A stretch of 62,895 bases of DNA, taken from a virus. This document shows positions 992 through 48,856 of this stretch, in pieces. Below the pieces are notes generated by a model, which did not search any database, was not told where the DNA came from, and saw only the letters and a list, made by a program, of their open reading frames with translations. The stretch is taken from the IMG/VR virus record IMGVR_UViG_3300014656_000029. The stretch is one strand, 5' to 3'. The position numbers were made by a program, and so were the translations under genes. Each line of letters opens with the position of its first letter. Position 1 is the stretch's first letter.

Positions 992-1622
992 GCAAAACCA
1001 CACAACAGTATTAAGCAAACTTGCTCCATTGTTTCAGCACCTCGGAGTTATAGAATTAGAAAAAAAAATAGCTCCCCATTTAATTGCAGATATACTGATA
1101 ACTACAGGAGACGGAAAACACATAGTGGTGGAGTATCAGAACTCCTGTAGAGATTCACATTACATTATAGGAAAAACTACAAAGTATAGTCAGTACGGCT
1201 TATACTGTGGATGGATATTTAATACAGATTTATTGAGTACAAAACAAGTAACTGAGGTTTTTATAACCTACGGCGGGATAGCCTATTTTTATGACGTATC
1301 TAAAGATATACTAATGTGTAATGATAAAATACTACTTACACCCCAGCAGTATATGGAAAAGAAAATTGATGTAGAGGATAACTTGATCTACAACAAATAT
1401 TCCTATGAAGATGTAGTGGAGAGGGTTGCGGCGTCTCGCGGATTTCAGTATAACAGGGAAGATTTTATAGAACCTGAATTATCCTATGAGTATTCTAAAA
1501 TCATAGATGATTCTGCGGATATAATAATGACGCAGTATTCAAAAATAGCCCTCAGAACTGATATTGTTTCGTATTTAAATATTGGTTTAAAAAGAGCCTA
1601 CTTCTCATTAGCTACTAAGTAA
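981..1622 (+). CDS. hypothetical protein
   Basis: 213-aa ORF; its start overlaps the previous ORF and it converges on the next gene. Confidence 0.35.
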   Translation: MRVKQNHTTVLSKLAPLFQHLGVIELEKKIAPHLIADILITTGDGKHIVVEYQNSCRDSHYIIGKTTKYSQYGLYCGWIFNTDLLSTKQVTEVFITYGGIAYFYDVSKDILMCNDKILLTPQQYMEKKIDVEDNLIYNKYSYEDVVERVAASRGFQYNREDFIEPELSYEYSKIIDDSADIIMTQYSKIALRTDIVSYLNIGLKRAYFSLATK

Positions 1623-3010
1623 GTATCTAACTCTTTAGATATCTCTTTCAATATAGCAATAAATTCTTTTTCTTTTCCTTTTACCATAAACGAGTTATAC
1701 ATAGGAATATCAGCAAGCTCTTTAGTACACTTATTTTCTATATTATTTGCTATTTTTAAAATAGCGTCAGCCAGCATCATTCCTTGCCACGGGAGAGGTT
1801 TAGCTGTTTCTATTCTTAATTTGAGTGCGTGTTTTGCTATCTCTTCGGAGTAAGCAATAACATCCTCTACTGTTTTTACTTCGTAGCCTTCTAAGTGTAA
1901 ATTAGATAAGTTCCATAAATCAGATTGGTGCTTAAGTTCTTTTTTAAGCGTAATATACGAAGCCTCCATCCAATTTTTAGTGCTACCTTCTTCTGAGTCA
2001 AAACCTAAAAGAACAACAGGGCTTCCACCTAAAATAATACCCAAACTAAACGCCGTACAGTCTAATGATACTCCTGCGTCAAAAGAAAACTGCTCTTGTA
2101 AAGTATTAAAAATCCAATCTTTATACACGGAACGTAGCGGAGCAAAAGTAAATGTTTTGAGGAAAGGAAGCTTCTGTAATTTAGGGTACGCAGCGATAGG
2201 TGAAACTAAAGAAGTTTCTTTTATATCATTAGGTTTAAATTTAGTTAATACTTTTTTATTTCTATCTGCACTGATTACAAAATGTGGTTTAATGCCTGCT
2301 TCTATAACTTCCCCAAAAGACTCTTCCGTACAGATAAAGATTATACGTTCTTCCATTCCTTTAAAATTAGTAATATGTTCTTTCAAAGATTCCCCGCAGG
2401 AACAGACAACTACAGGTTTTTTAAAGCATAGATTATGTAAGCCATTTATATCGGGGTTTTGTGTGTGCTTAGGTAAATTTCTAAGAACATTTTCTGCTTC
2501 TTCTTTTAACAAGGATTGTACTTCTTGTCTCATAGAGTTTAAAAGTATATTAATTCTTCTTTGTAGTGTTTCGGCAAATTCCGTAAACGCTTCTTTAAAG
2601 TATGTGGTCCAGTTTGGAGCGGCATATACAGCTATCCCACAATTAGCATCTAATACGTAAGCGGCTTCAAACTGTGTTATAAATACATTTAAATTACTAG
2701 AAATATACACTTTCTCGTTTCTAAATAGATCATCCCTTTCAGGAACGCACATTGCAAAAATATCATCTGTGGGTTCGTATATAAAAAGTTTATCAATATC
2801 TGGGTGCAGTTTTAAAATAGCCTCTGCGGTGTACCCAAAATCGTGACCAAACAAAACAACATATTTTGTAGGGTTAGTTGTTTTGTTTTGTTTTATATAG
2901 TTATAACAGAATTTTACGGGGTCCACAAAATCCTGTATAGGATTACCGTTTACTGATAAAATGTAAGCCCCTGATTTAGCTTTTACTTTTGTTAATTCAA
3001 CAGACTCCAT
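1598..3010 (-). CDS. Maf/DUF115-like (motility accessory factor, MptE-like) putative nonulosonic-acid glycosyltransferase, paralog A
   Basis: Motifs FGHDFGYT..IYEP, SSNLNV, VVCSCGESL (compare CSAGPSL in paralog B), PHFVIS, LLGFDSE. Likely start is the ATG at 3010, preceded by AAAGGA; the track start at 3040 is a TTG. Confidence 0.5.
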   Translation of the reverse strand: MESVELTKVKAKSGAYILSVNGNPIQDFVDPVKFCYNYIKQNKTTNPTKYVVLFGHDFGYTAEAILKLHPDIDKLFIYEPTDDIFAMCVPERDDLFRNEKVYISSNLNVFITQFEAAYVLDANCGIAVYAAPNWTTYFKEAFTEFAETLQRRINILLNSMRQEVQSLLKEEAENVLRNLPKHTQNPDINGLHNLCFKKPVVVCSCGESLKEHITNFKGMEERIIFICTEESFGEVIEAGIKPHFVISADRNKKVLTKFKPNDIKETSLVSPIAAYPKLQKLPFLKTFTFAPLRSVYKDWIFNTLQEQFSFDAGVSLDCTAFSLGIILGGSPVVLLGFDSEEGSTKNWMEASYITLKKELKHQSDLWNLSNLHLEGYEVKTVEDVIAYSEEIAKHALKLRIETAKPLPWQGMMLADAILKIANNIENKCTKELADIPMYNSFMVKGKEKEFIAILKEISKELDTYLVANEK

Positions 3011-3143
3011 ATTTATAACATCCTTTATTATTAGGTTCAATTACTAAAAAACGTTATTTAATAATATAGGAAGTATTAAAAAAAGACAAGTAAAAAATTA
3101 TACTCGCTAACTAATTAACCTTTTGTATAAAAGGAGTATCATA

Positions 3144-4730
3144 ATGGCACTCGTAAAACCTCTCATAATTTCTGCGGAAGGATTTCCGCGCGAAGCTGCT
3201 TCTTCTACTGACTACTTGCTATTACAAGGAGGTTTAGTTGTAAGCTCTACAGCAGTAGTTAGTTTTGCTGGTGCTCGTTTACGTAGTGTTGGTGCGCCTA
3301 CTTCTGGCGGTGACGCTACAAATAAAACCTATGTTGATAACGTGGCATCTAACATTAAATGGACTAACCCTGCCCAGGTACTTAAAGTAATAGGCGATAC
3401 AAAAATAACTGCTCCGGGTACTCCTGTTTCTGGAGACGCTTGGGTACTTAGTGGTGCAGGTGTGGGGGCTTGGGCTGCTTGGGGAACTGGAGATATCGTT
3501 GAATACAATGGCTTACTTATTGGTTGGAAGCTAGTGTTATCTGCTGGTGATTACATTAATGATTCTACAAGAGTAGTAGTAAAAAGTACTAGTGGTGCAG
3601 GGTCTTTTGCTGGAGAAGAAAATAATATCTTACAGTGGACAGGTTCTGCTTGGGAAGTTGTAGTTAGTGCTGAAGATGGAAGAGCATTGCTAATAATTGG
3701 TAGCGACAGTATTTATGAGAACATAGGTTACGTTTACGATTCAGAGGGGGGTTCTACAGGTTGGGTTCAATTTACCGGTGCTGGACAAATAGTTGCAGGC
3801 GACGGTATGACTAAAGTTGGAAATACTTTAAATGTAGGTGGGGGAGCGGGTATTACTGTAAGCGCAGACGGGTTATATGTTAATGCCGGTGATGGTTTAA
3901 GTATAGATGGTATTAACTATGTTGTTGTTGTTGCCGATTCTGGTATCTCTGTAGGTGCGGGTGGTGTAGCTGTAAATGCTGGTAGCGGTATTGATTTTAA
4001 CGCTAGCGGTGCTGTTATGGTTGTTGCCGATTCTGGTATCTCTGTAGGTGCTGGCGGTGTAGCTGTAAATGCTGGTAGCGGTATTGATTTTGCTAGTGGT
4101 GCTGTTATTGTAGATACTGTAGGTAATGGTTTAGCGGCTACAGCTGCCGGTTTACATCTTATTGCTGGTACAGCTATAGATTTAAATGCAAGTGGTATTT
4201 CAGTTAAATATGATGATGTCACCTTAGGTATTAGTTCTGATGCCTTGACCGTTGTAGGTGTTCCTAGTAACTTTGAAATCAATGGTGTTGCAGTAGGAAA
4301 TACTGTTACTGCTGCTAACTTAGATACTTTAACAGATGGAAGTAATGCCGATCTTCTTCATTCACATAGCGGTATGTATCTAACATTATCTTCCGCCGAA
4401 GCTATTTCTAAAGGAGATCCTGTTTATGTACAGACTACTGATTTAGTTGGTCAAGGATGTGCTGCTTCTGGTAATATGTCCAGAATTATAGGTCTTGCTC
4501 TTACTGCTGCGGCTTCTAATGCCGCTTGTATTATAGTTAACAATGGTAGTATTGTTAGATCTTGTGTTACAGGGGCAACATATAATGCTCCATATTATTT
4601 AAATGCTGCTACCGCAGGTATTACAGCAACAATTCCAGCTGCTGCTGGTAGTAGGCTAATAATGGTAGGATATGCAATTAACACATCTGACATTTGTGTC
4701 CAGCTACGCGATTACGGACAGAAACTTTAA
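3144..4730 (+). CDS. Gly/Ala/Ser/Thr-rich fiber-like structural protein with internal tandem repeats (tail fiber or other surface fiber)
   Basis: SD AAGGAG 8 nt upstream of the ATG at 3144. Repeated VVVADSGISVGAGGVAVNAGSGIDF(N)ASGAV units. Beta-helix-like composition. Confidence 0.6.
   Translation: MALVKPLIISAEGFPREAASSTDYLLLQGGLVVSSTAVVSFAGARLRSVGAPTSGGDATNKTYVDNVASNIKWTNPAQVLKVIGDTKITAPGTPVSGDAWVLSGAGVGAWAAWGTGDIVEYNGLLIGWKLVLSAGDYINDSTRVVVKSTSGAGSFAGEENNILQWTGSAWEVVVSAEDGRALLIIGSDSIYENIGYVYDSEGGSTGWVQFTGAGQIVAGDGMTKVGNTLNVGGGAGITVSADGLYVNAGDGLSIDGINYVVVVADSGISVGAGGVAVNAGSGIDFNASGAVMVVADSGISVGAGGVAVNAGSGIDFASGAVIVDTVGNGLAATAAGLHLIAGTAIDLNASGISVKYDDVTLGISSDALTVVGVPSNFEINGVAVGNTVTAANLDTLTDGSNADLLHSHSGMYLTLSSAEAISKGDPVYVQTTDLVGQGCAASGNMSRIIGLALTAAASNAACIIVNNGSIVRSCVTGATYNAPYYLNAATAGITATIPAAAGSRLIMVGYAINTSDICVQLRDYGQKL
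3927..4110 (+). repeat. about 90-nt direct tandem repeat (2 copies) inside the fiber gene
   Basis: gttgttgccgattctggtatctctgtaggtgc..gctgtaaatgctggtagcggtattgatttt occurs twice in succession with few substitutions. Confidence 0.7.
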
Positions 4731-4815
4731 TTAAAACTAATACAAATATAAGTAAGGGGGGTTTTTGTTGAAAAAAATTTAAAATTGTTATATACTTCTG
4801 TAATAAGGAGTCGCT

Positions 4816-6474
4816 ATGACTACAGTAGGTTTAGAAGTAAAAGAAGCAGTTAGAACAAAAGATTTCTATTTCGTTATAGATGGAATTCCCATACAAAACC
4901 CTGAAGACCCTAAGGGGGAAACGCTAAAAGGTATTATGACAGCGGAACCTAAAGCTCCAGATAGTATAAAAATATTTATAATATTTGGTTTAGACTTTGG
5001 TTATACTATAGAAGCTACGAGAATGGTATATCCCAATTCTGTCATATTCTGCTATGAGCCAAGCGATCTTATTGTAGAAGAAGTAATGAGTAGGCGAGGT
5101 AAAGATTTAATGAAGATACCCAATCTGCTAATAACTTCCAATTTGAATGTATTAGTAAAAAGAATACATGATAAATATGGAAGTAGTGAGGCAGCTTATA
5201 TACTACCTTTGGACAAATGGGAAAAAATGTTTCCAAAGGAATTTGAAGAATTTTTAGAAAAGGTACAACGTATAGTTTTAACAAGAATGATGAGCAGAGT
5301 AACTAAAGAGATAAGATATAAACCTTGGGTAGATAATTTTCTTTTGAACTTACCTTTTTACCTTAATAGTAGTAATCATGGAGGAAAATTAATTAATTGT
5401 ATCCCCCCTAATACTCCCGTTATCATTTGTTCCGCAGGACCTTCCCTAAGTAAAAACGTAGAGCTATTAAAAGGGCTAGAAGATAAAGTAGTTATTGTTG
5501 CTGTGAACACTGCTTATCAATCCTTGAGGCATTATGGCATAGAGCCCCACATTGTAGCCTCTATAGAATCAGTGGACGGTTCCTCTATGCTCTCGGACTT
5601 TGAGAGCTTAAATACTACCTTAATGGCCCCTCTTGTTGTGCATCCTAATATGTTGAAGCTCCCCTTCAAGCAAAAAATTCTGTTTTCTAATTTTCCTTCT
5701 TTCTATTCTTCCTTGTTCAAATCTTTAGGGGAGAATGTTATGCTAGAACTAGGAGGGAGTGTCGCTTGTGCTGCTTTCGCTATAGGGTTTATGTTAGGTA
5801 GTTCTAATATCATATTAATAGGGCAGGATTTAGCTTTTGAAGATAAGGAAGAAATTGATTATTATTCAGAAGGAAGTAAATACAACAGCAAAAAAACAAT
5901 TATTGATAAACAAAAAAATCTAATTTACATTCCTTTTAAAAAAGAGATAGCTAAAGAAGATCCGCAGTTTCAATATTTGGGGGACGAAATACCAGATTAC
6001 GCAGCACTACCTTTAAAATATACAAAGGGATGGAATGGCGGAGATGAAAAAGTACCTACGCATAATCACTTTTTGTTCTTTATTAACTGGTTTGAATCTG
6101 CTTCTTTTAATCTTAGTAAAAGTAAAAATTTGTTTAACTGTACAGAGGGAGGAGCTTACTTAGAAGGCTTTATACACAAAACGCTACAAGAATCTTTAGA
6201 ACTGTGTCATGTTAATAAACTTAAGGACCATCATTTAAATAGTATTTTAGGATCGTTAGAAGCAAATCCATCTCTTAAAAAAACATTCAAAGAATATGCT
6301 GCTAATTTAATACATATGCTTAATGATGAGAAAACAACTATTGTAGAGCTAGAAAAGTATTCTGAATTATTTAATGCCTATACTATTGCTTGTAAAAATA
6401 ACAAAAGAGAAATGGTGGAAAAGTTTAAGGAATTTAAATCAAGATTTATACAAATGTATGAAGAGTTAAATTAG
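4816..6474 (+). CDS. Maf/DUF115-like putative glycosyltransferase, paralog B
   Basis: SD AAGGAG before the ATG. Motifs FGLDFGYT..CYEP, SNLNV, ICSAGPSL, PHIVAS, KLPF, LIGQDLAF. Clear paralog of 1598..3010. Confidence 0.55.
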   Translation: MTTVGLEVKEAVRTKDFYFVIDGIPIQNPEDPKGETLKGIMTAEPKAPDSIKIFIIFGLDFGYTIEATRMVYPNSVIFCYEPSDLIVEEVMSRRGKDLMKIPNLLITSNLNVLVKRIHDKYGSSEAAYILPLDKWEKMFPKEFEEFLEKVQRIVLTRMMSRVTKEIRYKPWVDNFLLNLPFYLNSSNHGGKLINCIPPNTPVIICSAGPSLSKNVELLKGLEDKVVIVAVNTAYQSLRHYGIEPHIVASIESVDGSSMLSDFESLNTTLMAPLVVHPNMLKLPFKQKILFSNFPSFYSSLFKSLGENVMLELGGSVACAAFAIGFMLGSSNIILIGQDLAFEDKEEIDYYSEGSKYNSKKTIIDKQKNLIYIPFKKEIAKEDPQFQYLGDEIPDYAALPLKYTKGWNGGDEKVPTHNHFLFFINWFESASFNLSKSKNLFNCTEGGAYLEGFIHKTLQESLELCHVNKLKDHHLNSILGSLEANPSLKKTFKEYAANLIHMLNDEKTTIVELEKYSELFNAYTIACKNNKREMVEKFKEFKSRFIQMYEELN

Positions 6475-6953
6475 ATTTTTGTTTTCTTGTCAATTCCGGT
6501 GAGGACTCCATTCACGTCATCAATAGCAACATTCTTTTTATCTATTTCGTAGTCCACTTCTATTCTATGAATAAAGACATTGTATTCAGCACCTTTTTTC
6601 TGCTGATCTGCATTCAAAGAATTTATGATAGTCTGGTACTCTTTTATTTTAGGATTTTTGTCTATCTCCACTTGCAGCAGAGTTTTATATTTGTCAATCT
6701 GATGTTTCAGCGAAGACAGCTCTGCCATGTGAAATTTCCACTCAAATAAATCACTTTTAATTAGCTGTTTATATTCCTTGTATATTTCTTCTTTAGGAAG
6801 CCTTTCTCCCTCAGGCTGCTTTAATTCTGGCTCAGGCAGAGCTTCCTCTGGAACTTCTTCTATAGCAGCAGAAACCTCTTCTACGGAAGCAGCTATTTTT
6901 TTTCTTTTTCTTTTTTTACTGTTAACTTCAGTTGTTTCTTTTGTATTTTTCAT
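6471..6953 (-). CDS. hypothetical basic coiled-coil protein
   Basis: KKRKRKK N-terminus; Glu/Lys-rich helical sequence. Confidence 0.4.
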   Translation of the reverse strand: MKNTKETTEVNSKKRKRKKIAASVEEVSAAIEEVPEEALPEPELKQPEGERLPKEEIYKEYKQLIKSDLFEWKFHMAELSSLKHQIDKYKTLLQVEIDKNPKIKEYQTIINSLNADQQKKGAEYNVFIHRIEVDYEIDKKNVAIDDVNGVLTGIDKKTKI

Positions 6954-6957
6954 GTTG

Positions 6958-7233
6958 TTATTCCAATATTTTTAAAAGTACATCATGCAAAAACACAGGT
7001 ACTAAGTCTTTGCTTAATTCTGTGTTTATAAACACTCCACTTTGATTAGAAATTATATTGTATTCCTTCCATGTTATCGTATAGAGATTATTGTATATGT
7101 CAAATATTTTTAGTACAAAACCATCTCCCTCTAAATAACCATCATAAGTTATGTTGTACAATACGGAATAGGTATTCACTATACTAGAGCAAGCATTTTT
7201 AAGATTATTATTAACAGGTACATTATATGGCAT
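6958..7233 (-). CDS. hypothetical protein
   Basis: 91-aa ORF in a co-directional gene string. Confidence 0.3.
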   Translation of the reverse strand: MPYNVPVNNNLKNACSSIVNTYSVLYNITYDGYLEGDGFVLKIFDIYNNLYTITWKEYNIISNQSGVFINTELSKDLVPVFLHDVLLKILE

Positions 7234-7292
7234 AAAAACTCCTTTCGTACCCCATTAGTATCTCATATTTTTACAGAAATTAAAAGAAAAAA

Positions 7293-7796
7293 TTAACGTA
7301 TTTTAAAAAATTCGGAATTAAGAATATTATAAATTTCTTGTTCTTGGGTATCACAAATAAAAGTTTCTATAGAACTTCTTGTTCCCGTGTAGTCCTTGTC
7401 TATGTTTTTATATGTTTGATTACTTATTGTTGGTATTTCAGGAGATAGTAAAATCCAAATATTTCCTTTAAAGAAAAGCAAATACCACCCAAGGGCTGGT
7501 TCGTGAGAATACGTTTTTAAAAAGGTACCAGACTCGAAATAAAAAACCCTGCTGCATTCTATGGCGTAATCTGCGGAATCCCATATCTTCTGTAAAGAAG
7601 GAACTTCTATGTTATTCGTTTTAAATATATTATTTATATATTTAACTGCTTTATTGATTTCGCTCTGTAGAAGTGTTTGGGGTACTTCAGTCATAGAGGA
7701 GATATAATAGTTTTGTGTTTTTTTCTGTGCTAACATAGATTGCTCAATAACCATTGAACCTTTGCTGTATTTAAAAACAATAAGATCCCTAATCAA
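7293..7796 (-). CDS. hypothetical protein
   Basis: 167-aa ORF. Confidence 0.4.
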   Translation of the reverse strand: MIRDLIVFKYSKGSMVIEQSMLAQKKTQNYYISSMTEVPQTLLQSEINKAVKYINNIFKTNNIEVPSLQKIWDSADYAIECSRVFYFESGTFLKTYSHEPALGWYLLFFKGNIWILLSPEIPTISNQTYKNIDKDYTGTRSSIETFICDTQEQEIYNILNSEFFKIR

Positions 7797-7820
7797 TTTA
7801 AGATATAGGTGTGTTATTCA

Positions 7821-8180
7821 CTATTCTATTTCTTCCCACGAACCCTCTGTATTACGTCCTTCTACCTTTATGTTATTGGGAGACATAGATTCCTCTACGC
7901 GCTGTTCTAAACTTTTTCCAGTATCTATTTCTTTTACTTGTTCTGCTAGCCACATTCTAAACCTAGCAGTCTTTACAAGCTTATGAAGGGCCAGTTTCTT
8001 ATTCATGTATTGGCTGCGTTCAGTACGGCTTTCTGCTGCTGCTCCAGAGGGGTTATGAATAATCCTGACACCGCTGTCCGTCTTGTTCTGTTTCTGGCCA
8101 CCTTTACCGCCTGCTCTAAAAGTTTGAACAGTAAAGTCATCTTTATATATAGTAAAAAGTTTTTCCTTCTCTTTTGCCAT
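7821..8180 (-). CDS. arfB: ArfB-like peptidyl-tRNA hydrolase (class I release factor GGQ domain)
   Basis: FRAGGKGGQKQNKTDSGVRIIH..ESRTERSQ..NKKLA motif. SD AAAGGAGGAG upstream of the ATG. Confidence 0.8.
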   Translation of the reverse strand: MAKEKEKLFTIYKDDFTVQTFRAGGKGGQKQNKTDSGVRIIHNPSGAAAESRTERSQYMNKKLALHKLVKTARFRMWLAEQVKEIDTGKSLEQRVEESMSPNNIKVEGRNTEGSWEEIE

Positions 8181-9211
8181 TACTCCTCCTTTAATATATT
8201 ATAAAAAGCGGACCACTCAGGATAACCATTATGGAAAGTAACAAAAATGTTTCCCTCAGACATATTGGAAAAAGTAGGATATCCCCCATTGTACCATTGG
8301 AAATCACCTTCGGGTAATTCAAGCTCAATACAATCTTTCCATGTTTTACCCCCATCTTTACTAATGGATATAAAGCACACAGAACTTTTATCGGGGTTTA
8401 CTTTTCTGTAACCAAATAATAAATTACCTTTAGGTGTTACATGCAGACAGGGTGTGGTTCCTCGGATGCCCATGTTTTTAGGCTTAGTCCAAAATTTACC
8501 TTCTGTGGTAGAAAAAGAAATGTAGAAGGGGTGTTTTCTGTGGTTCTTATCCCTATCCATAAAATTGTCTTTGTATCCTCTAATTACAGATACAAGTGAT
8601 CCATCAGGAAGCAAAACAGTAGAGGTTTCGTCTCCTTGATTTTTAGTTATTGTATAATAGTTTTCCCACGAAATTTCTGTTTTACTTTCAGAATACAGTG
8701 TCTGAACTTGCCAATTTCCTATACCAAAGTTATTGCAAGAGCCGCACACAGTTAGCATTAAGTAGTCTTCAAATTCTATAATTTTACCGTAAGGAAATGT
8801 TTCTATCATGGAAGAAACTAAAATGTCTACATTTTTCCACGTATATCCGTTGTCTTCCGACACAGCAGTACACATGTTTATGTGTCTGTTTATTTCGCCC
8901 TTTTTAATAAAATAACCATCTACAAAAGGCATTACCAATGTCCCATCTTTCAGACAAGTAATAGTGGTACTTGCTTCAATACCTCCCCTTTTGTACATTG
9001 ACTTAAATGAATATTCTCCCAGCTCCCATGTTTTCCCCGCGTCTTTAGACCTATAGTAGTAAACACCTTCATCCTCTGACAGGTCACAGGAGTTATGGCA
9101 AGAAACTAGTATATCCCCATTGGAACAAATTACATTTCCGGGAACCATAGCAGGAATAAACATTTTTCCTATAACACCCTTGCTTACAACGGCCATTCTA
9201 TTATTACTCAT
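8180..9211 (-). CDS. BNR/Asp-box repeat protein, sialidase (GH33)-like
   Basis: Three Asp-boxes: SKDAGKTW, SEDNGYTW, SKDGGKTW. The canonical FRIP arginine was not seen (MFIP instead). Confidence 0.6.
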   Translation of the reverse strand: MSNNRMAVVSKGVIGKMFIPAMVPGNVICSNGDILVSCHNSCDLSEDEGVYYYRSKDAGKTWELGEYSFKSMYKRGGIEASTTITCLKDGTLVMPFVDGYFIKKGEINRHINMCTAVSEDNGYTWKNVDILVSSMIETFPYGKIIEFEDYLMLTVCGSCNNFGIGNWQVQTLYSESKTEISWENYYTITKNQGDETSTVLLPDGSLVSVIRGYKDNFMDRDKNHRKHPFYISFSTTEGKFWTKPKNMGIRGTTPCLHVTPKGNLLFGYRKVNPDKSSVCFISISKDGGKTWKDCIELELPEGDFQWYNGGYPTFSNMSEGNIFVTFHNGYPEWSAFYNILKEE

Positions 9212-28201: not shown

Positions 28202-29497
28202 ATGATTATAACGTACCTGTCTTTAAGAAAGAAGGTTTTTTTGAAAATACTGTTAGTTTATCCTCCTATATTTAGATCCGCCAATATTTACAGCACAACG
28301 CTTCCGCTTGGGTTGTTGCATGTTGCTACCTATTTACAAAATGAAGGAAATTCTGTAAGAGTATTAAATTTAGAAAATGGCGGAGAAATAAAAACAGTAT
28401 CTATAAAGGATCTTAGAACAGCTTACGCTGCTAACGATCCTAAACAATATGTGTTTAATGAGGAGTCTTCATACAGACAAGAATTTAAAAAAGCTGTTTT
28501 GGATTTTCAACCAGACTTAATAGGATTCTCTGTGGCAACAGAACAAATAGATGCGGCAAATGAAATGGCAAAAGATGCTAAAAAAATGTTTCCTAACGTT
28601 AAAATAGAAATGGGTAACATAAGAATTTCGCCTTCTGATTGGGTAAAGCAAGTATCTGCTGCGGCTTTAATGATAGAACCTGATTTAAGCTTCTTAGAAG
28701 GACAGAACACCGCAGAGAGTTTTGGTTCTGTAATGACCAGCATAGGCTGTCCTTTTTCTTGTGTGTACTGTGGAAGCCCCCAGCAATACAAGCGCAAGAT
28801 AACATATTTTGAAGAGGATTCCGTTAGAAGAAGATTACGTAACGGTAAAAATATGGGAGCAAAAGGATTCTATTTACTAGACGATACCATTACAATCAAC
28901 ATTAAAAGAGCGGAAAAAATAGCAGACATACTTTCTGAGTTTAATATGCCTTGGAGAATTCAAACTAGAGTTGAAAGTTTAGTAAATAATCTACATCTTA
29001 TTTCATATTTTAAAGATCGCGGTTGTGTTCAGATGAGCTTCGGCGTAGAAAGTGGCTCTACCAGAATCAGAAAACTGATGAAAAAGAATTTGAAAATAGA
29101 CGATGTATTAAAAGGAGTAGAGCTGCTGCGCCAGCATGATATGCCTTATACAGCAAATTTTATGATAGGCTTCCCTTCTGAAACAAATGATGATGTGGAT
29201 GACTCTATGGCTGTAATAAAAGCCATGAAACCAGAACGTATTTCTTGTGCTTCTATGGTTCCTTACCACGGAACAGAATTATACATTAAAAATCCTAAAT
29301 TTGTAGAAGCTGCAAACAACTGGAATTTCTGTCAATGGTCTCCATTCAACCCTACTTTTTTAACCGATAAAGAAGGCAACAGAATAGACGGACCTTCTTT
29401 TGATAAGATAAATCAAATATATGAAATGGTTGAAAACATTAATGATCACGTTTCTAGTAAAAAAACATTTAGTACTGTATTGAGTAATAGAAAATAG
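28202..29497 (+). CDS. B12-binding (class B) radical SAM enzyme
   Basis: N-terminal Rossmann-like B12-binding region (KILLVYPP...LPLGLLHVATYL) and a CPFSCVYC (Cx3Cx2C) cluster motif. Confidence 0.75.
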   Translation: MIITYLSLRKKVFLKILLVYPPIFRSANIYSTTLPLGLLHVATYLQNEGNSVRVLNLENGGEIKTVSIKDLRTAYAANDPKQYVFNEESSYRQEFKKAVLDFQPDLIGFSVATEQIDAANEMAKDAKKMFPNVKIEMGNIRISPSDWVKQVSAAALMIEPDLSFLEGQNTAESFGSVMTSIGCPFSCVYCGSPQQYKRKITYFEEDSVRRRLRNGKNMGAKGFYLLDDTITINIKRAEKIADILSEFNMPWRIQTRVESLVNNLHLISYFKDRGCVQMSFGVESGSTRIRKLMKKNLKIDDVLKGVELLRQHDMPYTANFMIGFPSETNDDVDDSMAVIKAMKPERISCASMVPYHGTELYIKNPKFVEAANNWNFCQWSPFNPTFLTDKEGNRIDGPSFDKINQIYEMVENINDHVSSKKTFSTVLSNRK

Positions 29498-42009: not shown

Positions 42010-42112
42010 GGGGACTCCTTAAAGTGAATATAAAAATACTACATAAAATATAACATTCCGCCCAAAGTTATTTATATTTTTAAGATTGCTAAAGGAGTTA
42101 CTGTTCAGTAAG

Positions 42113-42185
42113 CAGGCGGCAAGGGAGTCGAACCCTCATCTTACAATTTTGGAGATTGTTGCTCTGCCAATTAAGCTAACCGCCT
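42113..42185 (-). tRNA. tRNA-Trp(CCA)
   Basis: Cloverleaf read by eye. Anticodon stem ACAAT/ATTGT, loop CTCCAAA. Confidence 0.7.
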
Positions 42186-42222
42186 AAAATACCCCTATAG
42201 AACTAAATGTGTTATATTTTTG

Positions 42223-42483
42223 TTAGTATCGGTTAGCCTTGAACCAATCACCATTAGAGTCCATGAGTAATTTCTTTCCACATGTTATACACGTAGAAGT
42301 CATACTTAGACCATCAAAACCTTTCTTGCTTTTAGGGTGGTGCCAGTCCAGACAATTACAATGCCACTTTGTGGGTCGGAAAATAAAAAGTATCCTTGCC
42401 GTAAATATGAGCAAAGCAAATAAAATAAACAGTACTGAAAATACCATAATAATTATAAATATTGGTAACGGTGGTGTATTCAT
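42223..42483 (-). CDS. small membrane protein
   Basis: 86 aa; strongly hydrophobic N-terminal half. Confidence 0.35.
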   Translation of the reverse strand: MNTPPLPIFIIIMVFSVLFILFALLIFTARILFIFRPTKWHCNCLDWHHPKSKKGFDGLSMTSTCITCGKKLLMDSNGDWFKANRY

Positions 42484-42488
42484 TCTTC

Positions 42489-42788
42489 TTATCCTGCTGT
42501 GTACCTTTCTACAAATTCAGCAAAATCCTCTACTGATAAATTATATCTTTCTCTATAAAAATACAATGTTGGGCCACTATAGCAGTCGCTTTCGAAATTA
42601 ACCTCAACAACATCTCCTCCATCATCATAATAACGTAGGTTTATGTCTTCAATATTATAGCCGGTTACATCATAGCCCCACTTTTCCGCTAAACGCCTTA
42701 TAAGTTCATTTCTAGGAGCCAGCCAATCTTTAAGTTCTTTTTCAATTTCATTTTGCATGTTAAGCAATTCTTCAAATTTTTTTGTCAT
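42489..42788 (-). CDS. hypothetical protein
   Basis: 99 aa. Confidence 0.4.
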   Translation of the reverse strand: MTKKFEELLNMQNEIEKELKDWLAPRNELIRRLAEKWGYDVTGYNIEDINLRYYDDGGDVVEVNFESDCYSGPTLYFYRERYNLSVEDFAEFVERYTAG

Positions 42789-43234
42789 TTATGTTTCATT
42801 TCAAAAGTAATATCTATATTCTCAAATTCCTTTTTAAGTTGGTTGTATAGCTCTCTTCGTTTTTCTTTTTCTTTTTGTTGTTTTTTAATTTGTTTATCCC
42901 GTACTAATTGTGCTTTTTCTTCTTCATGTTTCTTAAATTCGTAATACTCCATAGCCAGCTCAGAATAGGAATAATTTTCAGTAACATAGAAATAAGGGTC
43001 TGCATTTACATCATTCAAATAGTAATTACTATTCTCGCATTGTATTTCAATCTCAATTCCGCTGTCATTAAATTTAAAACCATAAACTGTCTGTTCAGGA
43101 TAAAGCAATTCTCTTACATCCATCCACCCTCTAATGTCATCCAGCATAACATAATTTATATGCTCATTTAGTTCTTTCTTTTCTAATAGAGGCATGTTGT
43201 CTATTTCTGTAAGTATTGTTTGTGATAGGGTCAT
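42785..43234 (-). CDS. hypothetical protein
   Basis: 149 aa; its stop overlaps the downstream start. Confidence 0.4.
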   Translation of the reverse strand: MTLSQTILTEIDNMPLLEKKELNEHINYVMLDDIRGWMDVRELLYPEQTVYGFKFNDSGIEIEIQCENSNYYLNDVNADPYFYVTENYSYSELAMEYYEFKKHEEEKAQLVRDKQIKKQQKEKEKRRELYNQLKKEFENIDITFEMKHK

Positions 43235-43250
43235 GCTTACTTCCTATGCC

Positions 43251-43793
43251 TTAACTATGCTGTTTATCTTTAAGTTTATTTAAAATACCCCTCATAGTAA
43301 GAGCTGCGCCTGTTACGCATACTATCTCTTTTTCCAAAGAAAAATCATCAAGGGAATTGTCCAACCATTCATTAATTTCCTCTGTAATATTATTAAAAAA
43401 TTTTTTTATTGGTTTAGAGTAGAGTAGAGAGGAGTCCCGTATAACTGTATGTTTAGGAATGTCCTTAAATTGCTCGTATATTTTATCAGAAACAGACATA
43501 GGATTCTTTTCCGAAATAATGTGTATCTTACGTACTGTTATATAATCTGTAATCCACAAGCTAGGTATGTATTTAAAACTTCCAAAAATATCCTTTTTAG
43601 GAGATTTAGTACTATTCCAAGTTTTACTGGGGTACGTAGAATAAAATTCAAAATAGTAAACTCCGTGCTCGGTGTCTACAACCCTATTAATTTTTACTTT
43701 GTTGTTTTTTGCCATAGAAAATAATTTTCTAAAAAACATTTTGATACTTTTCACTTTTCTTAATTGCAGCGGAGTTAATTCTGATTTAGTCAT
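43251..43793 (-). CDS. hypothetical protein
   Basis: 180 aa. Confidence 0.4.
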   Translation of the reverse strand: MTKSELTPLQLRKVKSIKMFFRKLFSMAKNNKVKINRVVDTEHGVYYFEFYSTYPSKTWNSTKSPKKDIFGSFKYIPSLWITDYITVRKIHIISEKNPMSVSDKIYEQFKDIPKHTVIRDSSLLYSKPIKKFFNNITEEINEWLDNSLDDFSLEKEIVCVTGAALTMRGILNKLKDKQHS

Positions 43794-44272
43794 TTGTGTT
43801 TTCTCTTTTTACCGTATTGATTTCTCAAACCGGGTATTGGTGGTTTATCTTTAGTTTGGAGTTTAATATGATCTTGTTTTTTAGGAATACCTATGTCATC
43901 AAGTAGTTTACCAAATTCTTCGATATCCTTACTTAACTCATGTCTTCTTTGCTCTACTTGCAGCAATTCTTTTTCCCTATAATATTGTCTTATTCTTTTT
44001 TTTATCTCAAAAGAATCTTGCTGAGAATCAGTAGTAGAAATTTCTGAACAGTGGCACATAGCATCAGGATGAGCAGCGAAAGCACTGGAAAAAGAATCCT
44101 CATAGGGGGAAGAGAATACATCTAAAATTCCCCCACAGACAGAACACCTAACTATAGTTAAAGCTACTGTCTCAGAAGATGTTCCTACAAATTTATTCTC
44201 GGAAAAAATTAGATTCTCTGTAACAATATTGGTGTCACTAGAAGAAGGACGGCTGTTTCTATTTCCGCTCAT
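43790..44272 (-). CDS. hypothetical protein
   Basis: 160 aa; overlapping stop and start. Confidence 0.4.
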   Translation of the reverse strand: MSGNRNSRPSSSDTNIVTENLIFSENKFVGTSSETVALTIVRCSVCGGILDVFSSPYEDSFSSAFAAHPDAMCHCSEISTTDSQQDSFEIKKRIRQYYREKELLQVEQRRHELSKDIEEFGKLLDDIGIPKKQDHIKLQTKDKPPIPGLRNQYGKKRKHK

Positions 44273-44529
44273 TGTTTTGTTACCTTGTCAATAGAAGATA
44301 ATATGGCCTTAGGTCCTCTTCGGAGTAAAACATCTGAGTTAAAACCTTCCCCTAATTTATCCCTAACTTCTGTAACAGTGTCTCCATAAGCCACTACTTC
44401 TTTTCCCTTTAAAGCAACCCATTTTCCGCCATATTCCTCAGGAGACAGTATGACATTAGCAGCATCTATATGCTCTTGTGTCTGGGTAGCTTTAGCTCCT
44501 AGGGTTATTTTAACTTCTGTGTTACTCAT
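44269..44529 (-). CDS. hypothetical protein
   Basis: 86 aa. Confidence 0.4.
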   Translation of the reverse strand: MSNTEVKITLGAKATQTQEHIDAANVILSPEEYGGKWVALKGKEVVAYGDTVTEVRDKLGEGFNSDVLLRRGPKAILSSIDKVTKQ

Positions 44530-44564
44530 ATTAGTATATATCTTTCTTAAATTATAGAGTTTTA

Positions 44565-45227
44565 CTAAAACGCGCGTTCCCCTTTACTGAAATGTCTACC
44601 ACATTTAACACAATATTGGGTCTTTTTATCCATCATGTAACCGCAAGGACAGGACCACCTTATTCCGTTTTCCATAACAAGATCTTCTAGTTCCACATTA
44701 TTAAAGAAACTATTTAATGCTGCTTTATTAATATGGTCAAAGCTTAAAGCTTGCTCTTCTATATCTTTTAAACAATAATCTGGAACACCTGACATCTCTG
44801 ACATCTTTTCTATGCTTATCCCAAGAACATTTTTTCTAAACTCTTTAATAAAGTTAGATAGCTCGTATTCGTGTTTTAACTCAAACAGAAAATTTAAAGC
44901 GAAACGTGACTTCTTCTCTATCCACTCATACTTGTACATATCTACAACACTAGAACATTTGTTTTCGGGTACTTCTTTTAATGCATCTCTTGACAAAAAA
45001 GTGTGTTGCTTTTCGCATGTATCACAACCGTTAAGTCGCCTTTCTCTGCTCACAGAAGGGGAAAAACAAATAGGACAGAACCCATAAGGCTTGACTGACA
45101 GTGTGTCCTCTTTATAATTCTTATGACCATTTATACAAGCGTGCCACCCCCGATCAAGATCAGGGAAGCTAACAATTAGTTCTCCGCAAATAGGACAATA
45201 TTTACTTTCGTTGTTTTCTTGCATCAA
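44565..45227 (-). CDS. multi-zinc-ribbon protein with central XRE-like HTH segment
   Basis: CPICGE, CPICF, CDTC and CVKCG zinc-ribbon pairs; central LGISIEKMSEMSGVPDYCLKDIE. Confidence 0.4.
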   Translation of the reverse strand: MMQENNESKYCPICGELIVSFPDLDRGWHACINGHKNYKEDTLSVKPYGFCPICFSPSVSRERRLNGCDTCEKQHTFLSRDALKEVPENKCSSVVDMYKYEWIEKKSRFALNFLFELKHEYELSNFIKEFRKNVLGISIEKMSEMSGVPDYCLKDIEEQALSFDHINKAALNSFFNNVELEDLVMENGIRWSCPCGYMMDKKTQYCVKCGRHFSKGERAF

Positions 45228-45349
45228 TTATTCTCCATGTTAAATAGAAGTATTTGTTTAAATACTTTAATAACAAAATAAGTGTTGATTTTTGTAACTT
45301 GCATTACCTCAAAAGAATAGTATTCAAGAAGAGTAGCTATCTCTAAATG

Positions 45350-45604
45350 TTATTTACACCTAGGCCATTTCATTCCATCGGGGAAAAATTCAATTACATT
45401 ACCACACCAATCTTCTGCTTCCCACCCGTTTGATGGGGTTGTTCCTTGTTCCGGCGCATAATCTTTAAATGCCTCAGGAAACTGATCACGGTGCCACGGA
45501 GAAGTTCCACGAACATACTTATGAATAGTTCCCCCCCTAATATCAAATGGTGGATGAAAATCTGGGCCAATTACGGTAAAATCTTGCTGTTGGTTTTTAT
45601 TCAT
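45350..45604 (-). CDS. hypothetical protein
   Basis: 84 aa. Confidence 0.35.
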   Translation of the reverse strand: MNKNQQQDFTVIGPDFHPPFDIRGGTIHKYVRGTSPWHRDQFPEAFKDYAPEQGTTPSNGWEAEDWCGNVIEFFPDGMKWPRCK

Positions 45605-45762
45605 TTTTGATTTACTTTCAATTTAATTAGTAATGCCTATATTTTTCTGTTTGAACGCTGCAAGCATTATTTTCTCGCTATTGTTTTTAAATTCCATTTA
45701 AATCTCCTCTAGCAGCAATATACCTCAATTAAAACCCTTATGTCAAGATTTTTTTATTTCAG

Positions 45763-45835
45763 CCCCTCGGGTTGGTTCCGCCCCAACGACACCGCGATTT
45801 TCAGTCGCGTGCTCTACTACCTGAGCTACCGAGGG
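45763..45835 (-). tRNA. tRNA-Phe(GAA), atypical T-loop
   Basis: Acceptor CCCTCGG/CCGAGGG, D-arm GCTCAGGTAGTAGAGC, anticodon arm CGCGA-CTGAAAA-TCGCG. The T-loop reads GGCGGAA, which is non-canonical. Confidence 0.55.
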
Positions 45836-45842
45836 AAAATTG

Positions 45843-45925
45843 TGAACGGAGAGGGATTCGAACCCTCGAAGGACTACCGAGAGATTAAAAGTCTCTTGCC
45901 TTTGACCTGACTTGGCTATCCGTTC
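45843..45925 (-). tRNA. tRNA with Ser-like type II scaffold (12-nt variable arm) but anticodon loop CTTTTAA (UUU)
   Basis: Acceptor GAACGGA/TCCGTTC, D-arm GCC-AAGTCAGGTCAAA-GGC, T-arm GAGGG-TTCGAAT-CCCTC, discriminator A. Confidence 0.5.
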
Positions 45926-45929
45926 AAGA

Positions 45930-47036
45930 TTAATACGCAATTTTTCTTTCACTACAGTGCCGCTTAAGCGTTTTTAAAGCTACTCCAATGATATCTGCAA
46001 CTTCATAAAGGGGTTTACTTTGCACTAATTTTTGTAATTCTGTAGAGGATGGCCATGTTACTTTCTTTCCTCTACTCCAGTGTCCCGCAGGGGGAGTTTC
46101 AATATTATATTTTTTACACCAATACCTTACTGTTTCTGTATTTACCGAAAAATCTCTTGCAATTTTAGGTATGGATTTTTCCCAAATAAGTTTTTTCAAA
46201 TCTTCTTTAGAGGGCCACAGGATATTACCCTTATGCGTGTCAGGATACTTTTTATTTTTAGATTTAGTTTTAGCCCAATATCCTCTAGGAGGCTTTTCTA
46301 TTCCGTGCTTCTTGCAACGTTTTTCTATAGCTTTACTAGAAACACCTAACTGCTTTGCTAATTGTACTGTGGACATTTCCCAAACTAATTTTTCTAACTC
46401 CTCGTTAGAGGGCCACTTAGCATCGTAATGTTCTGTGTTTTTACAACTAGTAGAACAGTATTTTCTAGTGCTTCGGCCTGTGGGGTAAAACACTTTTTTA
46501 CACACAGGACAAATAATTTCTTCTTTTTTACGACAATGGTCTCTAGTGTGTGTAGACTTGTCAGTAATTTTTAAATTAAGAGAAACATTATTACTCCGAT
46601 CCTCATCTTTGTGGTGAACTAATTCTGTTTCCTCTAAATATCTTCCTAAAACATTTTCCATAACAAGGCGGTGTACGTACACACTACCATTAACCCACGA
46701 ACGGGGATGGTTAGGGATGTACCCAGCAAGATATCCATTAACATTAAAAATAGGTATATTATCAATATCATGTTTTTGAAAAGGAGAATTTAATTTTTGT
46801 TTCTTCTCGCACTCCTTGTGTTCTCTTTTTCCATTCTTATATTCTACTGTAGTTAAAGTTAAGTCCTTATTACATATAGAACATTTTAATGTAACGGTTC
46901 TAGGTTTGGGAATATAATACTTCTTTACTCTTTCTCTATTGTATTCCTTATAACACAGTTCGCATCTGTTTCTTGCATATATTCCTTTTTTACCACAATA
47001 CATACAATATCTTTCCTCTTTTGTTTTTCTGGGCAT
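45930..47036 (-). CDS. HNH homing endonuclease with triplicated C-terminal DNA-binding module
   Basis: VHRLVMENVLG...VHHKDEDRSNN...H HNH motif. Three copies of WPSxEELxKLVWExS..LAKxLGVSxKAIEKRCKKHGIEKPPRGYW. The start is probably the ATG at 47036 (GGAG SD); the track start at 47102 would overlap a tRNA. Confidence 0.75.
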   Translation of the reverse strand: MPRKTKEERYCMYCGKKGIYARNRCELCYKEYNRERVKKYYIPKPRTVTLKCSICNKDLTLTTVEYKNGKREHKECEKKQKLNSPFQKHDIDNIPIFNVNGYLAGYIPNHPRSWVNGSVYVHRLVMENVLGRYLEETELVHHKDEDRSNNVSLNLKITDKSTHTRDHCRKKEEIICPVCKKVFYPTGRSTRKYCSTSCKNTEHYDAKWPSNEELEKLVWEMSTVQLAKQLGVSSKAIEKRCKKHGIEKPPRGYWAKTKSKNKKYPDTHKGNILWPSKEDLKKLIWEKSIPKIARDFSVNTETVRYWCKKYNIETPPAGHWSRGKKVTWPSSTELQKLVQSKPLYEVADIIGVALKTLKRHCSERKIAY

Positions 47037-47124
47037 TACGTATTCTCCACGAATATTAAAGTGCTCATAAACACTATATGTTAAAGAAATAAGTAAAGTC
47101 AACTATTATTTTTAGTAGCCACGG

Positions 47125-47198
47125 TGCCTCTAACAGAAGTCGAATCTGTAATCCTCCAATTTTAAGTCGAAGAGCGATACCAATTTGCTTATAGAGGC
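47125..47198 (-). tRNA. tRNA with anticodon UAA (Leu-type anticodon) on a type I (5-nt variable arm) scaffold
   Basis: Acceptor GCCTCTA/TAGAGGC, anticodon arm TTCGA-CTTAAAA-TTGGA, variable GGATT, T-arm ACAGA-TTCGACT-TCTGT. Confidence 0.55.
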
Positions 47199-47199
47199 G

Positions 47200-47287
47200 T
47201 GGTGCCCAAAGTGAGACTCGAACTCACACGCCTAGCTAAGGCAGTGGCTTTTGAAACCACCTTGTCTACCAATTCCAGCATTTGGGC
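47200..47287 (-). tRNA. tRNA-Leu(CAA), type II, CCA encoded
   Basis: Acceptor GCCCAAA/TTTGGGC, loop TTCAAAA, 16-nt variable arm, T-arm GTGAG-TTCGAGT-CTCAC, 3' ACCA. Confidence 0.75.
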
Positions 47288-47290
47288 ATG

Positions 47291-48079
47291 TTATATTTTT
47301 CCTGCTCTTTTCTTATTCCAATATCCTCTTGGAGGTTTTTGGATTCCGTACTTCTTACAACGCTTCTCTACAGCCTTATCAGAAACTCCAAGTTTCTTAG
47401 CTAACTGTACTGTAGACATCTCCCACACAAGTTTCTCTAGTTTCTCTTTAGTGGGCCAGTCTATTTTTTCTCTTGATTCTTTAGCACATTCTGTTGAGCA
47501 GTATTTACTTTTTTTATTTTGTGTTTTAAACGTATTGTCACAAACTAAACATATCTTTGTAAAAGTATTCTTACTTTTTCTCATTCTACAGGTGTACTTA
47601 TTTTTTCTTTTGCGCTTCTTAGTCTTTCTGTCTAACATATGCATAATGGTATGACAGTTTGGGCAAAGGATCTGGAGATTACATAATCTATTATCAATAT
47701 TATTTCCGTTTTTATGATGTAACTCTAAGGGAATACAATAGTGTAACCATTTTGTTTTATGGCACTTCTCACAAATATTTTCCTTTAACCCATAATATAC
47801 TATTTTTTCTCTTACTTTAGAGGATTTTATAAGAGACTCTTGGGTTAAATGGAGCTTTATAAATTCCTCTTTTGAAAGTTTAGGTCCAAGGGATGTTTCC
47901 TTATGTATCCCCTGTCCTTTAAAATATGAAATATCTATACCGTAATATACTATTAGTTTCTTAATACGTCTATAGTTTCCGCCAGAAGGAGTCAAGCCTA
48001 AAGCTATTAAGGTGCTGCGTATAGATAAAGTTTCTTTTACTGCATTCTCTAATATTTCTTTTGTGTACTTTGTGTTCAT
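47291..48079 (-). CDS. HNH homing endonuclease
   Basis: N-terminal KYTKEILENAVKE domain; CEKCH...HHKNGNNIDN...CPNCH HNH/zinc motif; C-terminal WPTKEKLEKLVWEMS...KPPRGYW module. Confidence 0.75.
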   Translation of the reverse strand: MNTKYTKEILENAVKETLSIRSTLIALGLTPSGGNYRRIKKLIVYYGIDISYFKGQGIHKETSLGPKLSKEEFIKLHLTQESLIKSSKVREKIVYYGLKENICEKCHKTKWLHYCIPLELHHKNGNNIDNRLCNLQILCPNCHTIMHMLDRKTKKRKRKNKYTCRMRKSKNTFTKICLVCDNTFKTQNKKSKYCSTECAKESREKIDWPTKEKLEKLVWEMSTVQLAKKLGVSDKAVEKRCKKYGIQKPPRGYWNKKRAGKI

Positions 48080-48123
48080 AACACTACTAATAGTGATATA
48101 TATCATACTTGTCAAATATAACT

Positions 48124-48200
48124 TGGTGCCTCTGAGAGAACTCGAATCTCCAACGTCCTGAGCCTAAATCAGGTCCCTCTACCAATTGGGGTACAGAGGC
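48124..48200 (-). tRNA. tRNA with anticodon UAG (Leu-type anticodon) on a type I scaffold, CCA encoded
   Basis: Acceptor GCCTCTG/CAGAGGC, anticodon arm CCTGA-TTTAGGC-TCAGG, variable ACGTT, T-loop TTCGAGT. Confidence 0.55.
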
Positions 48201-48205
48201 GTGTG

Positions 48206-48291: not shown

Positions 48292-48346
48292 ATTAAATTA
48301 TTTAAAGAACTTTACCTAATAGCTGGGGGTACAACTACATTTATTT

Positions 48347-48775: not shown

Positions 48776-48856
48776 ATTTAAATCTCCTTATACATTATAG
48801 TAAATAATATAATTTAGGAGGTAGTAGACGCCACGCATCCACGCAAAGGACATTTT

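Follow-up and report, generated by a model that had tools for sequence, protein, structure and literature searches.

What would a bacteriophage do with two enzymes of a family associated with the glycosylation of bacterial flagellins, and why should the gene of a fiber-like protein lie between them? This question is raised by IMG/VR virus record IMGVR_UViG_3300014656_000029, a stretch of 62,895 nucleotides (hereafter the window, whose numbering is used throughout) that makes up one end, 62.9 kb long, of a metagenomic contig of 121,228 bp (ENA ERZ27247128 k141_1754741). The three genes in question encode MafA, the fiber and MafB. [quoted passage not shown] An initial annotation had proposed that the phage either decorates its own fiber with nonulosonic acids or mimics flagellin. 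We find strong support for both flanking proteins as Maf-family enzymes and identify the middle gene product as a virion fiber protein. We tentatively propose, at slightly worse than an even chance, that MafB, together with MafA, O-glycosylates a virion protein of the phage with a nonulosonic acid, the bracketed fiber being the prime candidate.

The three open reading frames (ORFs) lie where the initial annotation had placed them, with the two putative paralogs on opposite strands. Judged by their sequences, MafA and MafB are indeed paralogs, as their similarity (30% identity over 350 amino acids (aa), E=2e-43, BLASTP) lies far beyond chance, and the alignment contains all the motifs that had been listed as shared (FGxDFGYT, YEP, SNLNV, CS(C/A)G(E/P)SL, PH(F/I)V, KLPF and L(L/I)G(F/Q)D). 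Their assignment to the Maf/DUF115 family also holds: PF01973 (MAF_flag10/DUF115) scored 80.8 bits in MafA and 119.5 bits in MafB, both well above the Pfam gathering score of 34.6 bits, and MafA has an additional weak match to Maf_flag10_N. A lack of any DUF115 or sialyltransferase-like profile match, which would have refuted the initial annotation, was thus not what we found. The sole NCBIfam match of each paralog is the flagellin-modification protein PseD (28 bits for MafA, 116 bits for MafB); these scores are far under the equivalog cutoff of 670 bits, so that the similarity is at the level of the domain, and the two proteins are members of the family rather than PseD orthologs. Among the 3,737 homologs of MafB found in a search of 5.8 billion proteins, all those that bear a name are listed either as DUF115 protein or as “motility associated factor glycosyltransferase”. 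The only significant match of the MafB sequence in the PDB is 5MU5, the Maf of Magnetospirillum magneticum (E=1.3e-5). Because the same search with MafA gave no match, this protein was modelled with AlphaFold2 (AF2), with a predicted local distance difference test score (pLDDT) of 85 and a predicted template modelling score (pTM) of 0.75. The structural comparison that had been suggested as a check placed the model closest to 5MU5 (E=8.4e-15, 613 alignment columns, all domains covered), followed by archaeal HPPK/MptE folds, which match the central domain only. The Maf-type multi-domain fold is thus taken from the AF2 model for MafA and from the sequence match for MafB.

Mutagenesis has identified E324 and D415 of MmMaf, as well as a conserved Ser (S334 of CbMaf), as essential for activity (bioRxiv 10.1101/2020.06.03.131540). 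In HMMER and MAFFT alignments, their equivalents are E251, S315 and D338 in MafB, and D259, S325 and D348 in MafA. Family membership, fold and retained catalytic residues, like the virion nature of the fiber and the absence of a flagellin context described below, are direct observations; enzyme activity, donor sugar and acceptor are inferred. MafA residues from about 16 to 140 constitute the N-terminal Maf domain with the invariant FGxG...YEP motifs. In the model, this domain also shows fold matches to spermidine synthases and class-I methyltransferases (ranks 7-50), which suggests a Rossmann-type nucleotide-binding ancestry.

The initial annotation had described the two Mafs as divergent paralogs. 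Their kinship stands, but it had missed that they are not equivalent: MafA is degenerate at conserved motifs. In an alignment of 12 sequences, MafB has every near-invariant motif (SAGPSL, VNTA, GQDLA and TEGGA), while MafA is the single sequence with seven otherwise conserved positions substituted: SAGPSL carries A to C and P to E changes, (N/G)TA is replaced by EES, and GQDLA carries Q to F, L to S and A to E changes. Moreover, about 100 residues are deleted from MafA, and the TEGG segment is gone with them. Both ORFs are intact and were gene-called in two independent assemblies. MafB, with its complete set of motifs, is most likely the active transferase. MafA, which has lost donor-site motifs and about 100 residues, therefore probably differs in specificity or serves as a partner without catalytic activity. 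Several diverged Mafs per locus are usual in bacteria, and some Mafs require a separate specificity factor (bioRxiv 10.1101/2023.12.03.569772).

The middle gene encodes a virion fiber protein, as the initial annotation had surmised, and we draw this from its homolog family, its fold matches to decoration proteins, the names of its structural neighbours and the genomic context of one homolog. Some of its 95 homologs have Pfam matches to DUF2793, YadA_stalk or adenovirus-fibre domains, and its N-terminal module is frequent among viral contigs. In the AF2 model, two confident beta domains flank a low-confidence repeat shaft, and a tandem repeat of 93 bp (31 aa) lies within the gene at 3920-4108. 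Foldseek matched the model in the PDB to capsid decoration or cement proteins and to the base by which the head fiber of phi29 binds the capsid, specifically HFTV1 8qsy (E=2e-4), TW1 gp56 5wk1_K, Pam3 8hdt_G, BB1 8pkh, phi29 6qyy and lambda gpD 8xqb, with TM-scores to the target of 0.4-0.56 overall. A decoration-protein fold of the gpD or phi29 gp8.5-base type is thus predicted for one of the fiber domains, the search not saying which. The match to the PHROG “head decoration” family is weak. Among the predicted viral structures of BFVD, the neighbours of the model are named tail fiber or tail fiber-like proteins and capsid decoration proteins alike. Finally, one homolog (P0128, locus L208) is encoded downstream of portal, protease and major capsid genes, six genes past the major capsid gene. 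The protein is possibly a head fiber.

Two further claims about this protein fared differently. It had been called Gly/Ser/Thr-rich; the Gly richness is real, while its Ser+Thr content of 16.4% is ordinary for the family (median 17.2%, range 13.6-20.1), and the protein is better described as Gly/Ala/Val-rich (G 14.4%, A 13.5%, V 11.2%). Mimicry of flagellin by the fiber gained no support: no flagellin-like domain was found in it.

Coordinates of the locus and of the other features discussed are collected in Table 1. For MafA and the fiber, gene callers and Shine-Dalgarno sites favour the later start codons, which are most likely the ones used. The MafA and fiber genes are divergent, with 133 bp between them, while the fiber and MafB genes are co-directional. 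A promoter-like site (TTGAAA-17-TATACT, 4768-4796) is present in the spacer between the latter two, in which no convincing terminator was found (the fold, at z=-1.6, is not significant). In the gap between the MafA and fiber genes, either strand carries hexamers that resemble promoters, at a frequency not above that of shuffled sequence. Because neither promoter nor terminator scans across the locus gave an excess over shuffled expectation, we make no claim of an operon.

Table 1. Features of the Maf-fiber locus and related regions; positions are those of the window unless another locus is named.
Feature	Coordinates	Strand	Description
MafA	1598..3010	-	Maf-family paralog, 470 aa from ATG at 3010
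MafA ORF, longest form	1598..3040	-	480 aa, TTG at 3040
PF01973 domain of MafA	about 1997-2491	-	
N-terminal Maf domain of MafA	about 2621-2995	-	residues about 16-140
Intergenic region MafA/fiber	3011..3143		AT-rich, divergent; AAGGAG 8 nt upstream of fiber ATG
Virion fiber gene	3144..4730	+	528 aa from ATG at 3144
Fiber ORF, longest form	3123..4730	+	535 aa
Fiber N-terminal module	5' part of 3144..4730	+	DUF2793-like
Fiber first beta domain	about 3360-3767	+	residues about 80-215; confident in AF2 model
Fiber repeat shaft	about 3768-4382	+	Gly/Ala/Val-rich; low-confidence in AF2 model
Fiber C-terminal beta domain	about 4383-4727	+	residues about 420-535; confident in AF2 model
Spacer fiber/MafB	4731..4815	+	85 bp; AAGGAG ahead of MafB ATG
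MafB	4816..6474	+	canonical Maf-family paralog, 552 aa
PF01973 domain of MafB	about 5335-5844	+	
BNR/Asp-box beta-propeller protein	8180..9211	-	343 aa, sialidase-like; BNR_2 51.7 bits
IMG/VR locus L019	5065-15890 of L019		gene order: GNAT, formyltransferase, NeuB, HNH, Maf, terminase, HNH, portal
IMG/VR locus L016	5105-14427 of L016		gene order: NeuB, PseB, Maf, terminase-like ORF, portal, prohead protease
Sister-contig gene regions	4637-9060 and 13222-14838 of L291		third Maf paralog, NeuC/LegG and neighbours

The Mafs of the window are remote from those described so far. A tblastn search with MafB against 50,697 deposited phage genomes gave no match, neither MafA nor MafB matched a PHROG family, and the locus has no DNA similarity to deposited phages. 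In a full-text search of the literature, no report of a phage-encoded Maf was found. Among 185,579 bacterial and archaeal species genomes of GTDB, no relative of the phage Mafs exceeded 30% identity, and no near cellular relative or prophage copy above that level hinted at a host. The closest relative, P0001, comes from the same sample and is 38% identical to MafB; together with MafA, MafB and a further sequence, P0002, it makes up a clade that, by sequence comparison, is a compact and highly diverged branch of phage Mafs. The phage Mafs of the window are 470-552 aa long, whereas the cellular enzymes have about 600-680 aa, and their own C-termini are short helical regions of about 90 aa, with a weak match to tetratricopeptide repeats (TPR; E=0.08). 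Because they are so compact, they are without the long C-terminal region that in Maf-1 binds flagellin (bioRxiv 10.1101/2023.12.03.569772).

Mafs were also found in about 30 other IMG/VR contigs, in which they are clearly recognizable, share 26-33% identity and are typically about 610 aa long. A Pfam scan of 81 ORFs neighbouring these genes returned NeuB (8), PseB-like dehydratase (5), DegT aminotransferase (3) and GNAT (4), as well as portal (7), Mu-F (7) and T7-type terminase (4). In loci L008-L038, Maf and NeuB-, PseB-, PseC- and PseH-like genes, as well as formyltransferase genes, stand directly upstream of genes for terminase, portal or Mu-F, and prohead protease. Flagellin genes occur within 6 kb of 37 of the 80 cellular Maf genes examined and of none of the 39 viral ones; no flagellin gene was found in the 62.9-kb window, in the contig of P0001 (L001) or in locus L007. 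Phage-borne Maf modules away from flagellin are therefore recurrent and seemingly undescribed.

In the mechanism that we propose, MafB, with MafA as its modifier or partner, would O-glycosylate a virion protein before assembly, with a nonulosonic acid as the sugar. The adjacent fiber, with a decoration fold predicted for one of its domains, would be the prime acceptor candidate. The sugar donor would be supplied wholly or partly by the host, possibly with the aid of a NeuC/LegG-type epimerase of the phage. Glycosylation by Mafs takes place in the cytoplasm, with soluble CMP-sugars and folded proteins, and needs a dedicated acceptor-binding module (bioRxiv 10.1101/2023.12.03.569772). These enzymes have no acceptor sequon and are promiscuous with respect to the donor (PMC11339370). 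A virion protein would be the most likely acceptor because Mafs act on folded proteins in the cytoplasm, where virions assemble. The lack of the long flagellin-binding C-terminus and the remoteness from cellular Mafs suggest that the acceptor is new, and argue against a function recently taken over from a host. Virion glycosylation by phage enzymes is known in mycobacteriophages (Freeman 2023, PMC10527164, as cited in PMC12619734). Glycosylation of the fiber by the Mafs is plausible. The more specific version, in which the phage coats its own head fibers with nonulosonic acid by means of a phage-specific Maf clade, and MafA is a degenerate adaptor or second-specificity paralog, is possible, though we hold it with more doubt than confidence.

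A potential contribution of the phage to the sugar donor comes from the contig that carries P0001 (ENA ERZ27247128 k141_1319388, referred to as L001 or L291; 24.6 kb). One of its genes encodes a NeuC/NnaA equivalog, which scores 340 bits where the cutoff is 236; relatives of this protein at roughly 50% identity are annotated as hydrolysing GDP/UDP-diacetylbacillosamine 2-epimerase, that is, LegG. A 591-aa ATP-grasp protein and TylF-type and class-I methyltransferases are encoded there as well; the rest of the contig holds a DnaJ-like gene and unknowns, with nothing of the NeuB or NeuA type. This contig has the same guanine-cytosine (GC) content as the window, and the genes that they share are the Maf paralogs only. 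They also share an element of 93-97 bp, about 97% identical, which lies at a contig end in both (1-93 of the window; 21194-21290 of L001, inverted), is predicted to form three hairpins (z=-5.7 relative to shuffled sequence) and has no match in Rfam. The contig probably belongs to the same genome as the window. Its join to the window is unproven because an independent assembly of the same run also breaks at this 97-bp element.

Other features of the P0001 contig include an IS605 TnpB gene, an NAD-dependent DNA ligase gene and the DnaJ-like gene. Four adjacent ORFs (L001 14588-15398, 16536-16854, 17484-18332 and 19546-20268) share internally repeated DNA, with repeats of about 65-78% identity at offsets that are multiples of 66 bp, which suggests a family of repeat proteins.

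Several results weigh against the proposed decoration of the fiber. We searched for both gene families with profile hidden Markov models (HMMs) at 80 viral and 80 metagenomic loci of fiber relatives (about 20 of them with full-length homologs and flanks of up to 10 kb) and at 39 viral Maf loci. No Maf was found within 10 kb of the fiber relatives in these about 160 loci, no fiber of this family was present at any of the 39 Maf loci, and the window alone, among the loci examined, contained both. Conserved Maf-fiber synteny was thus tested in both directions and found in the window only, and the idea that the Mafs decorate the adjacent fiber gained no corroboration from other loci of either family. 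Even P0001 has no fiber gene beside it, its neighbours being small unannotated genes and a DNA ligase gene. Because the co-occurrence is confined to the window, a functional Maf-fiber link is drawn solely from adjacency in one genome. The fiber shows no Ser/Thr enrichment over its Maf-less relatives, and its BFVD neighbours, named after both head and tail proteins, speak against a firm placement on the head. NeuB/PseI/LegI, NeuA/PseF/LegF or other nonulosonic-acid pathway genes were found neither in the window nor in the next about 10 kb, and no gene of the NeuB or NeuA type was seen in the 24.6-kb contig or in the about 73 kb thus covered of the main contig. The window is without a gene for capsid, portal or terminase, and its viral nature is deduced from other features. 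Finally, a natural acceptor other than flagellin has been shown for no Maf, and CbMaf refuses even non-cognate flagellins (PMC11339370).

One alternative is an acceptor on the host side. The phage Mafs might modify a host protein, such as flagellin, pilin or an S-layer protein, and so alter the cell surface during infection or lysogeny, in a manner akin to the modification of O-antigen by phages. Such a change could block flagellum-dependent superinfecting phages or keep the progeny off the flagella of lysed cells, and the adjacency of the fiber would be incidental, or the fiber would bind glycosylated flagella. Flagellin is the only natural Maf acceptor shown by experiment, the adjacency to the fiber is not conserved, and the Maf and sugar cluster of the IMG/VR phages occupies a typical “moron” position upstream of terminase. 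Phage proteins that recognize flagella glycosylated with pseudaminic acid are also known (PMC7099621). However, a clade at most 30% identical to cellular Mafs does not look like a fresh capture that still fits the flagellin of a host. The proteins are without the long C-terminus with which enzymes of the Maf-1 type bind flagellin, and the presence of two to three diverged paralogs in one phage suggests phage-specific specialization. We regard modification of a host protein as unlikely, while giving it appreciable weight.

The Mafs could also be active nonulosonic-acid transferases that act on neither the fiber nor flagellin, with another virion protein (capsid or tail tube) or a glycan chain as the acceptor. 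In Tannerella forsythia, transferases of pseudaminic or legionaminic acid (Pse/Leg) that contain PF01973 cap a protein-linked oligosaccharide (PMC5420450). The other Maf phages carry the gene beside head-morphogenesis genes, without this fiber, and the third paralog, P0001, has only small unannotated genes as its neighbours. On the other hand, no further recognizable structural gene or glycosyltransferase gene lies near the Mafs in the window, and the tight bracketing of the fiber would have to be a coincidence. We consider this improbable.

Very unlikely is the explanation that the two proteins are MptE-like pyrophosphokinases, enzymes with a different donor or inactive relics with no bearing on glycosylation: although PF01973 is named “MptE-like” in Pfam, archaeal HPPK/MptE are the second-best folds for MafA, several conserved motifs are gone from MafA and a complete donor pathway was not found, MptE kinases have one domain and about 215 aa against three domains and 470-552 aa here, HPPK 8sd5 covers the central domain only while 5MU5 covers all domains with a match nine orders of magnitude better, PseD is the best NCBIfam match, the named homologs are all Maf glycosyltransferases, MafB retains the three essential residues along with each of the conserved motifs, and both ORFs are intact in two assemblies.

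The source of the window is, by well-supported inference, a large uncultivated tailed phage. This conclusion follows from 21 tRNA genes interspersed with HNH endonuclease genes, the few PHROG families matched, a tail-collar-domain gene just outside the window on the source contig, the predominance of ORFans and the Shine-Dalgarno sites. The GC content of the window is about 35%. At 1.7 kb from MafB, a BNR/Asp-box protein is encoded whose best PDB matches are GH33 sialidases (E about 1e-6). It has three canonical Asp-boxes, while the catalytic “RIP” arginine motif is replaced by “FIP”. It could be a hydrolase or binder of nonulosonic acids.

Several other genes of the window were noted. About 20 tRNA genes, all on the (-) strand, are interleaved with HNH endonuclease genes at 42112-60860; the latter are located at 45930-47102 (with an RWP-RK-like helix-turn-helix), 47291-48115 and 49624-50163, and the anticodon of a tRNA-like gene at 60698-60779 was left unassigned by ARAGORN. 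An 824-aa protein (30021-32495, +) combines an SPFH/Band-7 domain with the shoulder and repeat domains of major vault protein, which is odd for a phage; no PHROG family matched it. A 119-aa RF-1-domain protein (7821-8180, -) is of the ArfB-like peptidyl-tRNA hydrolase or ribosome-rescue type. Two radical S-adenosylmethionine (SAM) proteins are encoded, a B12-binding enzyme (28202-29497, +) and a QueE-like one (39290-40075, -), as well as a ferritin/rubrerythrin-like protein (17728-18243, -). At 13661-15729 (-), a two-gene unit is duplicated (13661-14137 corresponds to 14699-15154 at 41% identity, and 14140-14694 to 15157-15729 at 54%), and no family match was found for its ORFs. Host-like genes encode D-Ala-D-Ala ligase (52403-53491, +), thioredoxin (56710-57027, -) and a full-length DnaJ (59041-60195, +).

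The locus is of interest because Mafs have so far been studied solely as flagellin modifiers, and their choice of acceptor is an open question. They are under exploration for the direct sialylation of therapeutic proteins (PMC11339370). The enzyme family itself is already known; what is new here is its presence in a phage without a flagellin context, and a compact, flagellin-free phage clade represents a natural experiment in acceptor re-targeting. If the phage does coat its own head fibers with nonulosonic acid, a Maf would for the first time have a natural protein acceptor other than flagellin, and a phage particle decorated with such a sugar would be seen for the first time. It would also be one case of a wider undescribed habit, that of phages carrying Mafs and Pse/Leg pathways beside morphogenesis genes. 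Virions carrying sialic-acid-like sugars could be recognized differently by hosts, defence systems and animal immune systems, and such decoration would matter for the ecology of phages and for their use in therapy. Apart from the window, about 30 uncultivated phage contigs pair Maf with nonulosonic-acid genes beside terminase and portal; as the 50,697 deposited phage genomes and PHROGs contain no such gene, this module is apparently undescribed.

Compared with known systems, both paralogs share with the Maf family the PF01973 domain, the multi-domain fold and the three mutation-validated residues, and MafB also shares the motifs SAGPSL, GQDLA and TEGG, while MafA differs from known Mafs in its degenerate donor-site motifs. 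Multiple diverged paralogs at one locus are found in Campylobacter and Shewanella, and likewise here. Unlike the Mafs of flagellar clusters, those of the window are encoded by a phage, have no flagellin gene nearby and are at most 30% identical to cellular Mafs. They are shorter at both ends and appear to lack the TPR-type flagellin-binding domain of Maf-1. In contrast to Maf-2 with its cis-encoded GlfM, no GlfM partner was recognized, no profile search for GlfM having been made. The Maf phages of IMG/VR (L016 and L019) resemble the window in carrying a Maf that has no flagellin nearby and adjoins virion-morphogenesis genes. They differ in that these Mafs have full length (about 610 aa), fall into another clade (26-33% identity), have sugar-biosynthesis genes of their own and lie without the fiber family nearby.

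With the head fibers of phi29 (gp8.5) and decoration proteins of the lambda gpD and TW1 gp56 type, the fiber appears to share a decoration or cement fold of the kind that anchors on capsids. An extended repeat-rich shaft, as in the rest of this fiber, is also a feature of head fibers such as phi29 gp8.5. Sequence similarity to gp8.5, gpD or gp56 is undetectable, and tail fibers are among the BFVD neighbours of the fiber. The closest functional parallel is provided by mycobacteriophages, in which, according to the same cited work, phage-encoded cytoplasmic glycosyltransferases near structural genes modify capsid and tail-tube subunits, a layout similar to that of the window. As described there, those enzymes are not of the PF01973 family, the sugars are not nonulosonic acids, and the modification was detected by mass spectrometry, whereas here it is deduced from genes. 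The outcome proposed in both cases is a glycan-coated virion with altered recognition of the particle.

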